Shown here: piece after piece, positions 36,588 to 63,948 of the stretch
How positions within the stretch are numbered: position 1 is the first letter of the stretch
Layout of the letters: each line of letters begins with the position of its first letter
Assembly (NCBI GenBank): GCA_951406725.2
Contig: OX597831.1
Coordinates: 65,038,001 to 65,102,000 of the forward strand
Direction: 5' to 3'
DNA length: 64,000 nucleotides
Source: Octopus vulgaris
Lineage: Eukaryota
Program-made: the position numbers and the translations under genes
Notes under the pieces: model-generated
The model's input: only the letters and a program-made list of their open reading frames with translations
Database searches by the model: none
What the model was told of the DNA's origin: nothing

Positions 36588-36723
36588 ATGGTTGATGCTG
36601 TAACACAGTCAAAGGGGTTTTCGGAAGAGAAGGAGTATTCCTTCTTGGAACACCTTTGTTCCTTGGATATTGATACACCTCAGGTAAAGATGCCGCATAT
36701 GACCAGCATCATAGCTACTGTAG
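36588..36723 (+). CDS. PKM: Pyruvate kinase-like coding exon 1
   Basis: MVDAV...SFLEHLCSLDIDTP...TSIIATVG, like PKM TFLEHMCRLDID...TGIICTIG; donor G|GTGAGT, phase 1. Confidence 0.9.
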
Positions 36724-37184
36724 GTGAGTACAATTTTTCATTTATTTTGCTTTTGAAAACCATGTTCCTTCTTTTTTGTAGCAAGAATTTTCGACAAAAA
36801 TAATAAATCACTTCACCTTTTACAATTAACTATCTAATTTGGATGATTTAACAGAAGAATTAACAAATAGATTATGATTTAAAATAAAAGATTTCTTAGA
36901 AAGTTTCAGATTTCTAGAGAAGCACTTGGAATTCTTTTCCCAAAAACATTTGCATTGTAAAGGAAGCAATGTCAATTTAGTACCAAAATCACCATATTAT
37001 CAATCAAAATAGTGAAAACAAACGAAAGTAAATGTGTTCTAGTTATTATCACACATTAACAGATAGTTTTTAAATTCAAGAATTGATAATGTTGGGTAAG
37101 GGTCATGTACAATAGACTCTGGTTAATTGATGTTTTGTGTGTGATATTTGGTAGATGGAAACTGTACAAGAAATCTGCCATATA

Positions 37185-37345
37185 TGTGTTGTAGTCAAAA
37201 AGTATCCGACCTTTGACCAAAAAACAAGTAATGTTAAAAAAAAATCACCATTTTGATTTAGTCTCCTTCAAAGAATTTACTTTGGGAGTCTACACACTTC
37301 TGCCAGTGTTCCTGCCACTGGTGGAAACATTTCTGGAAATCACTT
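37185..37345 (-). mobile_element. 3' end of a mariner-type element
   Basis: Minus strand FQKCFHQWQEHWQKCVDSQSKFFEGD* followed by TIR-like sequence. Confidence 0.55.
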
Positions 37346-37364
37346 TTTGGGATGTTGTAGATGC

Positions 37365-37515
37365 TTGTTGTTGTTGTTGTTGTTGCTGGATTTCTTCTTC
37401 TTCTTCTTCTTCTTCTTCTTCTTCTTCTTCTTCTTCTTCTTCTTCTTCTTCTTCTTCTTCTTCTTCTTCTTCTTCTTCTTCTTCTTCTTCTTCTTCTTGC
37501 TGTTGTTGTTGTTGC
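37365..37515. repeat. (TTG)n-(TTC)n-(TTG)n microsatellite
   Basis: Direct inspection. Confidence 0.95.
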
Positions 37516-38071
37516 TAATTTTGAGTCAGCTTTGTTATTATTATTCCTGGTAGAATTTATGTGGGTAGCAAGTCACCTTAGACATCCACAAGCTTTCAAT
37601 AATCTTTCAAGGGCTCAAAACCCTTCTGATAATCTTCCCTGTCCCTAAGAGGCAAACTTTCTGTAGAAGCTCTACAGGACATTCTGTTCCACTCTCCTTC
37701 AACCATTTGTCTGTAGCATTATTCACAGTTCCCTAATTATTACCAATTATTACAGGCTCAATCTTTACAGTTTCCATCATACTCCAAATTCTCACAATTT
37801 CAAATTTTAAGGGATTGTATTTTTTTTTCATTTTTCTTCCTCTTTCGTTACAATCCTGGAATTGAATGGACATGATGCATCAATTAGTAAGCAATTCGCT
37901 TTTCCTTGTCTATTACACTTATGTCTGGTTTATTATTTTCTAGCTTCTTATCTGTTTGAATGGGAAAATTCTATAAATTCTTGCATTTCTCCAACTCAAA
38001 CACTCTTTCAACCTAATGATCACACCAAGCACTTCCAGTTTTAAATCCCAGTTTCTGACAAAGCTTCCATA

Positions 38072-39116
38072 TTTTGCTGACACCTTTGACCCAAACTTTC
38101 ACATTTTGCTTACACCTTCGACCCAAACTTTCACCTTTTGCTGACACCTTCTACCCAAACTTTTACCTTTTGCTGACACCTTCAACCCAAACTTTCACCT
38201 TTTGCTGACACCTTCTACCCAAACTTTCACCTTTTGCTGACACCTTCTACCCAAACTTTCACCTTTTGCTGACACCTTCTACCCAAACTTTCACATTTTG
38301 CTGACACCTTCAACCCAAACTTTCACCTTTTGCTGACACCTTCAACCCAAACTTTCACATTTTGCTGACACCTTCTACCCAAACTTTCACCTTTTGCTGA
38401 CACCTTCTACCCAAACTTTCACATTTTGCTGACACCTTCTACCCAAACTTTCACCTTTTGCTGACACCTTCAACCCAAACTTTCACATTTTGCTGACACC
38501 TTCTACCCAAACTTTCACCTTTTGCTGACACCTTCAACCCAAACTTTCACATTTTGCTGACACCTTCTACCCAAACTTTCACCTTTTGCTGACACCTTCA
38601 ACCCAAACTTTTACATTTTGCTGACACCTTCTACCCAAACTTTCACCTTTTGCTGACACCTTCTACCCAAACTTTCACATTTTGCTGACACCTTCTACCC
38701 AAACTTTCACCTTTTGCTGACACCTTCAACCCAAACTTTCACATTTTGCTGACACCTTCTACCCAAACTTTCACATTTTGCTGACACCTTCTACCCAAAC
38801 TTTCACATTTTGCTGACACCTTCTACCCAAACTTTCACATTTTGCTGACACCTTCTACCCAAACTTTCACATTTTGCTGACACCTTCAACCCAAACTTTC
38901 ACATTTTGCTGACACCTTCTACCCAAACTTTCACATTTTGCTGACACCTTCTACCCAAACTTTCACATTTTGCTGACACCTTCTACCCAAACTTTCACCT
39001 TTTGCTGACACCTTCAACCCAAACTTTCACATTTTGCTGACACCTTCTACCCAAACTTTCACCTTTTGCTGACACCTTCAACCCAAACTTTCACATTTTG
39101 CTGACACCTTCTACCC
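38072..39116. repeat. 32-bp minisatellite, ~33 copies
   Basis: Unit TTTTGCTGACACCTTC(T/A)ACCCAAACTTTCAC(A/C). Confidence 0.95.
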
Positions 39117-60853: not shown

Positions 60854-61004
60854 TATCAATGATATCATCTCTGTATCAGATGGAATCATTATATCTCGAG
60901 GCAATCTTGGCATTAGCATAAAACCTGAAAAGTTGTTCAAAGCTCAGAAAATGATCACTGGTCTTGCTAACATTGCCGGAAAATCTGTTACATGTGCAAG
61001 CCAG
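60854..61004 (+). CDS. PKM: Pyruvate kinase-like coding exon 7
   Basis: TTTCCAG|T; INDIISVSDGIIISRGNLGISIKPEKLFKAQKMITGLANIAGKSVTCASQ; 151 nt as in vertebrate PKM; not listed in the ORF track. Confidence 0.93.
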
Positions 61005-61614
61005 GTCTGTAGATCTATGAATTTACTTCAATCATTTCACTGTATGATAATATATTTCTGATAATATTTTATAATTATGTATTTATACCACTATCCATGC
61101 ATACTTATGACAGCAGCAATCAAGCTTTGTGCTACTAAAACTTCTATACTTGCTTGCTTCTTTCATGCACTTGCTTCATGGAAATTGGGTCATCCCAGAT
61201 TAGTGATCCCAAAGATGTCATTATGTGTATAGCCAACTAGATTCACCACTCGTCTCTATTGCTGGTGGTAGTGTGGCAGCCCTTCTGCATCCTCCAAGGT
61301 GATGTTCAGCCTCTGGGGATCTTTCCCAATGATGTCCAGCCATCTTGAATTTGAAGAACAGCTCCAAATATATATGTATCTTTATTTAGTTTGCAAGATT
61401 CTTTATGTGAGTTTGTGTGTTGAAGCATATTTTATTGTGACTGGGGAGAGTCGTTCTCTTTTATTGCCTTATTATTTAACACACTCACCGGTTCACTTTC
61501 CACTCATTTACTTATTTTTTCTGAAGTTTTTGTTGCTTCTTGTAACCTTTTCAATAGTATATAATGTATATGTATATATAATATATATATTTATATAATA
61601 TATAATATATATAT

Positions 61615-61687
<73 letters not shown>

Positions 61688-61689
<2 letters not shown>

Positions 61690-63720
61690 TTTTGATCTGT
61701 CATTGCCTCTGTGAAGCAATGCTTCACCACCTCTTCCCATGTCTTCCTGGGTCTTCCTCTACCACAGGTTCCCTCCACAGTTAGAGTTCGGCACTTCTTT
61801 ACACAGCTGTCCTCATCCATACACATATCAGAGCAGTCATCTCTCTTGCATGTCACATCTGATGCCCACATTTTCCTCAAGACACTCTGTCACACACACA
61901 CACTGACATTGCACATCCTGCGAAGCATGCTAACTTCATTTCTTTCAAGCCAATGCATGTCCTCGGTAGTCACAGCTCATGTTTCACTGCCATGTAGCAT
62001 AGCTGTTCACATGCAGGTATCATACAGTCTGCCTTTGCAGAGGCCCTTTGTTGCCAACAGAGGCAGGAGCTCTCTGAACTTTGCCCAGCCTATTCTTATT
62101 CTCTCAGCTACACTCTCAAAGCATCCCCCCCCACTACTGACTTGGTCACCTAGATAACAGAAGCTATCAACTACCTCTAGGTTACCCACCTGACATTTGA
62201 TGGGGTCTATTTTCTATACATTTTTAGTGTTTATTGTACCTGTGCACCTTCCACACACAAAAACTATTTTCCCAGTTAACCTTCCTCTGATATTGCTGCA
62301 CCTCTTATGTGTCCATAGCTTGCACTGGGTATATCTTATGGAATGTCTACCTATGCCTTTCCTATAGATCAAGTAGGGCCATCCATCTAAATGAAGGGAT
62401 TTGTGATTTGTCTGCTTTCCTACTTATTAAGACTTTGGTTTTTGCTAGGTTAACTCTAAGACCCTTTGATTCTAGATCTTGCTTCCACACCTGAAATTAC
62501 TTCTTTAGTTCTCGTAGTGATTCAGCTCTAAGAACAAGGTCATCAGCATAAAGGAACTCCCAGGTGCAACCCTTCTTAAATTCTTCTGTTATTGCCTGGA
62601 GGACCATGATGAACAACAGGGGGCTGAGGACTGATTCTTGGTGAACTCCTACTTATACCCTGAATTCATCGCTATTGCCTCATCTTACTGACTGCATCTC
62701 TGTACATGACTTGTACAGCTCTCACAAACCTCTCATCTATCCCTAGTTTCTGCATTGACCATCAGATAAGAGATCAGGAGACCCTGTCAAAGGCTTTCTC
62801 CATGTTAACAAAAGTCAAGTACAGAGATTTATTTTTGGCTAAGTACTTTCCTGCAGCTTCCTTACAAGAAATACAGCATCAATGGTGCTTCTCCCTGGCA
62901 CAGAACCAAACTGCAGCTCATCTAGACTAACTCTCTCCCTAATTAGTTGGGCTATGACCCTCTCCATGACTTTCATCACCTGATCCAACAATTTGTTACC
63001 TCTGTAATTAGTTCTATCTAAAGTATCATCTTTACCTTTGTAGCAGTTGACTATGGTGCTGTTACCCCAGTTATTGGGTATGACTCATTTGTGTACCACC
63101 TGATTAACTATACAGGTAACTAGACCATAACCCACACTGCCAGACATCTTAAGCATCTCAGTGGTTATTCCTGAGGAGCTGGGGGACTTTCCCCATCTTC
63201 ATATCCTTCATGGCTTTGTCTACAACACGGATCTTTACGGTTTGAACGGCAGTTTTTAACATAATTTCCACGTAACTAAACACTTTTAAACTTCGTATAC
63301 TGGTAGAATGTGTTTATAAAACATCTTTTTTTCTTGGCTTTATTGAGAAAATTCTATAGTTAGTAAGATATTTGTTGTTGTTTTTTTCTTCAATTTCTGC
63401 AATTTCAACCAATCACTGACATCCATTGAGGTAAACAATATTCTGTGCCGTATGAATATGTCCCTCATTTAAGAAACAGATTGGGTTTATTTACATTTCT
63501 GAAGAAAAAAGATACCCTTCCTGCCACCCCTAACCCTAACCCTAACCAAACCTAACCCTAAAGCAGATTGAAATGCAATAGATCAATTTTAGGGTCATAA
63601 TTATGGGTGACAATTTCATAAGACACCGCTAGAAAAAACTGCCGTTCAAACCGAAAAGATCCCTACAACACTACTGTCTATTCGACTTTGTCTACAATGC
63701 TACTGTCAATTCTTCTGCCT
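61688..63720 (-). mobile_element. Decayed RTE-clade LINE (RT and C-terminus), interrupted by MITE copy 4
   Basis: GVHQESVLSPLLF, FLYADDLVL, LEVVDSFCYLGD, EGTCGRGRPRKTW motifs on minus strand. Confidence 0.85.
63229..63662 (-). mobile_element. TTAGGG-bearing MITE, copy 4
   Basis: Same TIRs; perfect 9-bp TSD CTACAACAC. Confidence 0.88.
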
Positions 63721-63795
63721 AACACTTGAAGATAACAGTTAATGAATAGCTATTGTTTGATTCTGTAATAAATGTTGATTTTCTTTAACCTACAG

Positions 63796-63948
63796 ATGCT
63801 GGAGAGTATGACCATACATCCTCGACCTACCCGTGCTGAAGCAGGAGATGTCGCTAATTCTGTCTTAGATGGCATTGATTGTGTTATGTTGTCATCTGAA
63901 ACTGCTAAAGGAAAATATGTAATACAAAGCATCAAAACTTTAGTGCAG
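63796..63948 (+). CDS. PKM: Pyruvate kinase-like coding exon 8
   Basis: [57 protein letters not shown]; 153 nt; donor GTAAGG. Confidence 0.95.

Follow-up and report, generated by a model that had tools for sequence, protein, structure and literature searches.

The 64,000-nucleotide stretch of Octopus vulgaris DNA that we analysed (the window) carries eight exons of a pyruvate kinase (PK) paralog. Together they make 1125 nt, or 375 codons, without a stop, and the seven introns between them all have GT..AG borders. The exon structure of the first-pass annotation stands, and the introns total 26,236 nt. An in-frame TGA lies at 36576, upstream of the ATG, and the starts of three RNA contigs at 36537/36538 point to a further UTR exon upstream. 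The downstream exons, where disabling mutations might have been found, complete an open ORF of 11 exons and 536 aa, which matches P0122 (O. vulgaris, named 'PKM') without a single difference. The exon 6-exon 7 junction was spliced in contigs of all four runs examined.

Table. Features of the paralog and of its canonical neighbour (plain positions are those of the window; C18 positions lie beyond it; residues in human PKM numbering)
Feature	Position	Strand	Content
5' UTR part of coding exon 1	36538..36587	+	preceded by acceptor AG at 36536-36537
Coding exon 1	36588..36723	+	aa 1-45
Exon 2	43307..43401	+	R73 kept (43369); N75V (43375), S77A (43381), H78Y (43384)
Exon 3	47797..47919	+	D113, E118, R120 kept; T114I, K115A, T121L
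Exon 4	49734..49920	+	B domain; D177E
Exon 5	52728..52879	+	B domain; S205N, K207Q, G208T, N210H
Exon 6	57732..57859	+	F244L; K270, E272 kept
Exon 7	60854..61004	+	A293S, D296N (AAT at 60903), E300S, T328S; R294, G295 kept
Exon 8	63796..63948	+	PTRAE..DVAN interface helix (R342) and K367 kept; G363S
Exon 9	C18:65105065-65105231	+	
Exon 10	C18:65108116-65108234	+	
Exon 11	C18:65109588-65109787	+	
Canonical PK	C18:65142768-65122042	-	
Candidate alternative last exon of canonical PK	C18:65116504-65116269	-	

The paralog exceeded the Pfam cut-off for PF00224 (barrel and B domain) and PF02887 (C domain), its AlphaFold model had a pLDDT of 87.4, and the best Foldseek match of the model was PKM2 (6wp4_A, TM 0.89). 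By these domains and its predicted fold, the paralog belongs to the PK structural family, and the modelled fold is intact. It is like the animal PKM/PKLR enzymes (K+-dependent, E117 cluster; 43% identity) in its A/B/C fold and has in common with them R73, K270, E272, R294, R342 and the interface helix. A canonical PK was sought elsewhere in the genome, and an intact copy was found beside the paralog, tail-to-tail and 12 kb apart. The intron phases are common to both genes, which argues for a duplication at the DNA level; a retrocopy is ruled out by the common introns.

In an alignment with human PKM, from which the residue numbers are taken, we found all 12 substitutions that had been listed for the paralog (N75V, S77A, H78Y, T114I, K115A, K207Q, F244L, A293S, D296N, E300S, T328S and G363S), and all residues described as kept (R73, D113, E118, R120, K270, E272, R294 and PTRAE..DVAN). 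The changes T121L, D177E, S205N, G208T, N210H and R489G are additional to that list. A293S left aside, the 12 substitutions together with N210H and R489G set the paralog apart from animal PKM/PKLR. Position 75 is N in 116/116 other homologs and V in 0/149 representatives. E272 and D296 are the divalent-cation ligands of PK, and the nucleotide is contacted by H78, R120, K207, G363 and K367. In the paralog E272 is kept with D296N, and R120 and K367 are kept with H78Y, K207Q and G363S, so that neither set is that of an active PK. Four of the five catalytic and PEP residues are kept (R73, K270, R294 and G295); the fifth shows T328S, which is probably mild.

PMC4374775 gives N75, S77, D113 and T114 as the K+ ligands of PK. 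These are V, A, D and I in the octopus paralog, and the signature T114/K115/E118/T121 of K+-dependent E117-type PKs has become I/A/E/L; judged by its residues, the paralog is not a PK of this type. The K+-independent PKs (K117 cluster, crenarchaeal) are similar in having hydrophobic residues at 114 and 121, a small one at 115 and no S77, and for the crenarchaeal enzymes two K+ oxygens are enough for activity (PMC4374775). However, 25 K118-type representatives retain N75 (24/25), H78 (23/25) and D296 (24/25), whereas the octopus paralog has lost all three while lacking a compensating Lys at 118, and a K117-type K+-independent enzyme is ruled out on these grounds. Taken alone, S77A, T114I, K115A and T121L would be compatible with K+-independent activity (PMC4374775). 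For this reason, and for that given for T328S, we place the weight on N75V, H78Y, K207Q and D296N. The last of these corresponds to PKLR D339N (an offset of +43). In PMC8848962, D339N is reported as homozygous in a PK-deficient patient, without an in-vitro test, and K367M in PKM2 leaves little activity (PMC6586363). With ligands of K+, Mg2+ and the nucleotide lost, little or no PK activity would be expected, and we predict that the octopus paralog is probably a pseudoenzyme.

Orthologs at 92, 80 and 66% identity have intact ORFs in octopods and decapods, and in 10 near-full-length coleoid sequences from both groups 11 of the 12 substitutions are identical. The open ORF and the substitutions kept across coleoids bear out the view that the gene is intact and under selection. 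Among canonical invariants, the octopus paralog keeps 31/59 catalytic positions versus 37/44 in the interface and C domain (p=0.0008), and the same comparison gave p<=0.006 in 9/9 members scored, with segment limits that were taken from PK structures and fixed after part of the data had been seen, and with clade members that are not independent. In all nine members, helix 336-358 keeps 14-15 of 15 canonical-invariant columns, and the K+ and nucleotide loops just 7-10 of 18. These counts by segment agree with a degenerate pocket and a retained interface. At the FBP-site invariant columns (T432, S/T434, S437, W482, R489 and the G514-T522 loop), 5/6 are kept in coleoids, where R489 has become G or S, and 6/6 in the seven non-coleoid members scored. 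Changed invariant columns were fixed in six coleoids more often than ordinary ones (28/42 vs 168/356, p=0.02). Along with the kept R73, D113, R120, K270, E272, R294 and K367, this is as consistent with a new pocket under selection as with decay, and the kept interface suits homo-oligomers no less than heteromers.

The paralog forms one clade with degenerate PKs of other coleoids (cuttlefish included), of gastropods and of a chiton, with support of 100/100, and of 99 after removal of 70 active-site columns. A recent local duplicate of the canonical PK was rejected (p-AU 0.000119). On these trees the paralog is not a recent cephalopod duplicate, and its lineage reaches chiton and gastropods. E272Q occurs in Patella and Lottia, R73C in Haliotis, D296N in coleoids, Haliotis, Liolophura and P0070, and K367M/I/V among clade members other than the octopus; Candidula and Gigantopelta retain R73, N75, K270, E272, R294 and D296. 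In their sequences, different members have lost different catalytic residues, yet the PTRAE..DVAN helix is kept, as is the greater part of the C domain. A search of representatives added three members among the best 150 of 36,959 (Gigantopelta, Pomacea and one unnamed), and a clade-profile word search gave no further member among the best 120 of 2585. No named bivalve or Nautilus sequence was among the matches listed in the clade-member searches, which is not evidence of absence. We infer that the duplication dates from the mollusc stem or earlier, and that on the coleoid stem the pocket was then remodelled further and frozen.

A moth, a beetle and flatworms, too, have kept divergent, degenerate PK paralogs (P0169, P0179, P0176, P0181) in addition to a canonical gene. 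They group with the mollusc clade at 90 (unstarred) with active-site columns in, and separate from it once these are dropped, in trees that left out fly sequences. In PMC10755183 and PMC11836677, the Drosophila Pyk paralogs (Pykl1/CG7069 and others) are divergent, with the canonical gene retained alongside, and many are predicted pseudoenzymes; Pyk and Pykl1 are adjacent, as are the two octopus genes. Predicted PK pseudoenzymes are thus already known in flies, and the mollusc lineage appears new: the literature search listings held no description of it, no paper was found for 'D296N' with 'pyruvate kinase', and no mention of the accessions of six clade members was found.

It could be that the paralog is a non-catalytic structural or moonlighting homo-oligomer of one specialised tissue, either a sperm or testis scaffold or an enzyme-crystallin, which we consider rather unlikely. 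Cephalopod S- and omega-crystallins are enzyme-crystallins, the predicted fold is stable with its interface kept, and within one study (P6) exon 1 was present in one run and absent from the others. However, the clade includes limpets and abalone, which have no lensed eyes, and exon 1 was found in 20 of the 24 runs listed, from 10 studies (run labels coded, none on record as RNA). The fly paralogs are testis-biased and one adjoins Pyk (PMC10755183, PMC11836677). This analogy, drawn in the first-pass annotation, is weakened for the octopus, as one published table gives testis bias no support: in this O. sinensis list of testis DEGs, made from immature gonads, PK activity had 2 genes annotated (their identity is presumed) and 0 significant, while 10/19 glycolysis genes were significant. 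A contig from O. maya testis bears the label KPYM_HUMAN (E 7.9e-117) and is assignable to neither PK gene.

A neofunctionalised enzyme or metabolite sensor is likewise improbable; it would be a slow K+-independent kinase or catalyse a reaction without phosphotransfer, for instance oxaloacetate decarboxylation, which is a side activity of PK. Its PEP/carboxylate half (R73, S243, K270, E272, R294, G295) would, on this doubtful assumption, bind PEP, pyruvate or oxaloacetate. The new pocket residues fixed across coleoids and the six residues retained in Candidula and Gigantopelta speak for it, as does the likeness of T114I and T121L to the K+-independent signature (PMC4374775). However, the pair of divalent-metal ligands is broken, by D296N in coleoids, Haliotis, Liolophura and P0070 and by E272Q in Patella and Lottia; the sub-lineages differ in pocket residues, as expected under relaxed constraint; and position 118 is E, not Lys. 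Far less probable, and largely refuted, is a recent decaying local duplicate, or a gene from which A-to-I recoding would recover a normal PK, even though the canonical gene is adjacent and editing could reverse D296N (AAT) and S205N (AAC). The intact ORFs at 66% identity and the tree test contradict recent decay. The editable sites are only two of the changed sites tabulated, exon 7 had 0 other letters in 4/4 RNA contigs (contigs drop rare variants), and N296 is present in Logan-derived orthologs; rescue by editing is rejected on the unedited contigs and the few editable sites.

We therefore favour, at a probability of about 0.45, the reading that the paralog is a candidate non-catalytic subunit co-assembling with the neighbouring canonical PK. 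It would form PK-like oligomers and, through its retained interface helices, mixed tetramers with the canonical enzyme, in which the dead subunit would lend its R342 helix to the partner and PEP-to-pyruvate flux would be diluted or allosterically tuned. Plant plastid PK is an alpha/beta heteromer in which one paralog is inactive alone and acts within the heteromer; it serves as a model for this mechanism by analogy, no orthology with the octopus paralog being shown.

When molluscs withstand hypoxia, the PK/PEPCK branch is classically controlled at PK. In a bolder and doubtful version, molluscs would have held a dedicated dead subunit since at least the chiton-conchiferan split, which is Cambrian, and possibly since the protostome ancestor, with the gene adjoining the canonical one, somatic mixed tetramers, and a retained interface and effector site through which the subunit would set flux at the PEP branch point governing molluscan anaerobic metabolism; it would then be an animal counterpart of plant plastid alpha/beta PK. 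The ancient lineage, with its varied catalytic losses and one kept interface, offers a natural experiment in which the catalytic role of PK can be told apart from its assembly and allostery. For several molluscs the gene is named 'pyruvate kinase PKM' in databases, and omics studies may for that reason count a probable pseudoenzyme as PK.

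The eight exons that the first-pass annotation had placed in the window (G000:C18:65038001-65102000 on the genome) were borne out in position; they sum to 1125 nt, or 375 codons with 0 stops, and all seven introns between them (26,236 nt in total) are of the GT..AG type. Three further exons in the flanking sequence complete a 536-aa ORF, which shows 0 differences from P0122, the collected protein named 'pyruvate kinase PKM isoform X1 [Octopus vulgaris]'. With numbering taken from the alignment to human PKM, all 12 substitutions claimed earlier and every residue claimed as retained were confirmed, and T121L, D177E, S205N, G208T, N210H and R489G were found in addition. 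A whole fold is predicted for the window protein, because its AlphaFold model (61-sequence alignment) reached a pLDDT of 87.4 and a pTM of 0.88 and its top Foldseek match was human PKM2 (TM 0.89, rmsd 2.3). The transposon-like frames listed below, found by eye, are presumably mariner-like and retroelement-like.

Positions of features in window numbering, continued beyond 64,000
Feature	Position	Strand	Remark
Window gene exon 9	67065-67231	+	
Window gene exon 10	70116-70234	+	
Window gene exon 11	71588-71787	+	
Canonical PK	104768 to 84042	-	11 traced exons, start exon not among them
Candidate alternative last exon	78504-78269	-	L012:4769-5004; phase-1 acceptor, frame open to stop
Tandem array	51594-52614		34-bp unit, 30 copies, 91% matches; stops ~110 bp before exon 5
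Transposon-like open frame	17652-18401	+	
Transposon-like open frame	11406-12566	-	
Transposon-like open frames	24480-25623	-	two frames share a terminal peptide, which suggests internal duplication

Exon 1 was present in 20 of 24 listed runs from 10 studies (runs without an RNA label), and four of the 20, from four studies, were aligned to window 57600-61300. Each gave one contig of 1.2-2.7 kb in which 57859 is followed directly by 60854, the skipped intron being of the GT..AG type, and therefore the gene is spliced as predicted at that junction. No other letters occurred over exons 6 and 7 in any of the four run contigs, which drop rare variants. The D296N codon is AAT, which A-to-I editing could revert to Asp; no editing of it was seen in the majority sequence of the four runs, rare variants being lost from contigs. 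The contigs of three runs start at, or one base before, the acceptor at 36536-36538, 50 nt upstream of the ATG, which suggests one or more untranslated upstream exons. Short interspersed repeats at 59309-59677 and in other introns had very high contig depth; they occur in many transcripts.

PMC4374775 gives N75, S77, D113 and T114 as the K+ ligands of PK and describes crenarchaeal PKs that are active with Asn and Asp only, so that S77A, T114I, K115A and T121L alone would not be lethal to the enzyme. Position 75 is N in 116/116 other homologs and V in 0 of 149 representatives. A K+-independent PK of the Lys118 type is ruled out, because the window protein has lost N75, H78 and D296 without Lys at 118, and the 25 Lys118 representatives retain these residues (24, 23 and 24, respectively). 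D296N is equivalent to PKLR D339N (+43 offset). PMC8848962 reports the latter as homozygous in one PK-deficient patient, with no in-vitro test. Losses elsewhere in the clade of degenerate PKs include E272Q (Patella, Lottia), R73C (Haliotis), G363K/R and K367M/I/V/R, and little activity is left in PKM2 K367M according to PMC6586363. On these grounds we consider the window protein a probable pseudoenzyme (probability roughly 0.7). The coleoid pocket may nonetheless be selected for something, since R73, K270, E272, R294 and K367 are still present and fixation across six coleoids is commoner among the changed invariant columns (28/42) than among ordinary ones (168/356, p=0.02); decay of the gene is very improbable.

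Retention was scored on columns invariant in 12 canonical PKs, with segment limits based on PK structures. Of these columns, the window protein retains 31/59 in the catalytic segments and B domain versus 37/44 for the interface helices together with the C domain (p=0.0008). The same split was found in all nine members scored, of 17 aligned (p<=0.006 each, the tests not being independent because the members are kin), and helix 336-358 keeps 14-15 of its 15 invariant columns in the nine. That the members have lost different catalytic residues but share one conserved assembly surface suggests a role in oligomers. In PK tetramers, R342 of this helix touches the active site of the neighbouring subunit, so a dead subunit could sustain an active partner and at the same time restrain it. 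We tentatively favor such mixed tetramers with active PK, at somewhat less than even odds. A tissue-specific structural homo-oligomer, which could use the same surface, is unlikely, and a new activity or sensor, which the possibly selected pocket might serve, is slightly less likely still. The testis analogy drawn earlier comes from flies (PMC10755183; PMC11836677) and is not supported by the GO table of genes differentially expressed in the testis of immature O. sinensis (PMC11202624), where 0 of the two genes annotated with PK activity were significant, against 10 of 19 for glycolysis; we infer the identity of the two PK genes.

Searching with exon 4 by itself retrieved O. sinensis, Argonauta, Acanthosepion (fragment) and one Logan protein, and cluster look-ups added O. 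bimaculoides and more Logan proteins; ortholog identities to the window protein were 92, 80 and 66%. Across 10 near-full-length coleoid sequences, five of which belong to a single 90% cluster (fragment P0003 excluded), 11 of the 12 substitutions are shared without variation; the twelfth site, position 300, carries S or N. Eight of the 116 other homologs were conspicuous for being changed at 14-17 of the 35 key sites; these are the chiton Liolophura, Haliotis (2), Patella, Lottia, Candidula and two Logan proteins. The best 150 of 36,959 representatives added Gigantopelta, a partial Pomacea sequence placed by motif alone, and one further protein. The 764-aa Liolophura model (P0008) has repeated B-domain exon segments, probably an assembly or annotation artefact.

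In a 44-row tree the window gene joined the degenerate PKs listed above with 100/100 support, whereas the canonical PK of the octopus fell with Physella and Nucella at 97/96. Uniting the coleoid paralogs with the octopus canonical gene (27 rows, constraint chosen after seeing the first tree) was 53 log-likelihood units worse (p-AU 0.000119), which rejects a recent local duplicate of the canonical PK. After removal of 70 active-site columns and inclusion of six further degenerate PKs, the clade had an SH-aLRT of 99, with insect and flatworm degenerate PKs outside it. With these columns retained and 7 of the 30 rows omitted, all degenerate PKs came together (support 90, unstarred), and the data did not reject a single clade for all mollusc PKs (p-AU 0.22). 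These results place the duplication, as far as long branches allow, probably at or before the mollusc stem, with an older origin possible, and preclude a firm date. The original observation is real, with stronger support and an apparently older lineage than first thought and a predicted function. Its kind was already known, because predicted carbohydrate-pathway pseudoenzymes of Drosophila, including PK-like paralogs, are in print; for the mollusc lineage, whose members are named PKM or PKM-like in databases, no description was found in the open-access literature searched. Other degenerate paralogs (P0169, P0179, P0176, P0181, P0175, P0160, P0185; 12-21 changes at 32 key sites) come from sources including a moth, a beetle, flukes and a monogenean, and pseudo-PKs look recurrent in protostomes.

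The canonical PK that the first-pass annotation had called for was found in the same genome, with no change at 32 key sites. It lies tail-to-tail with the window gene, ~12 kb from stop to stop, and all genome matches to PF00224 (10 from 15 candidates) and PF02887 (4 from 8) fall in these two genes. All ten intron phases (1,0,0,1,0,2,0,0,2,1) and six exon lengths are common to both, which argues for duplication at the DNA level and rules out a retrocopy. On the strand of the canonical gene, 5.5 kb beyond its stop, there is a diverged second version of the last PK exon (32% identical, E=0.002 in 133 kb) that has no close relative in the protein set compared. In this candidate exon W482, G518, S519, G520 and T522 are replaced, and its alternative use would give a candidate FBP-insensitive canonical PK isoform.
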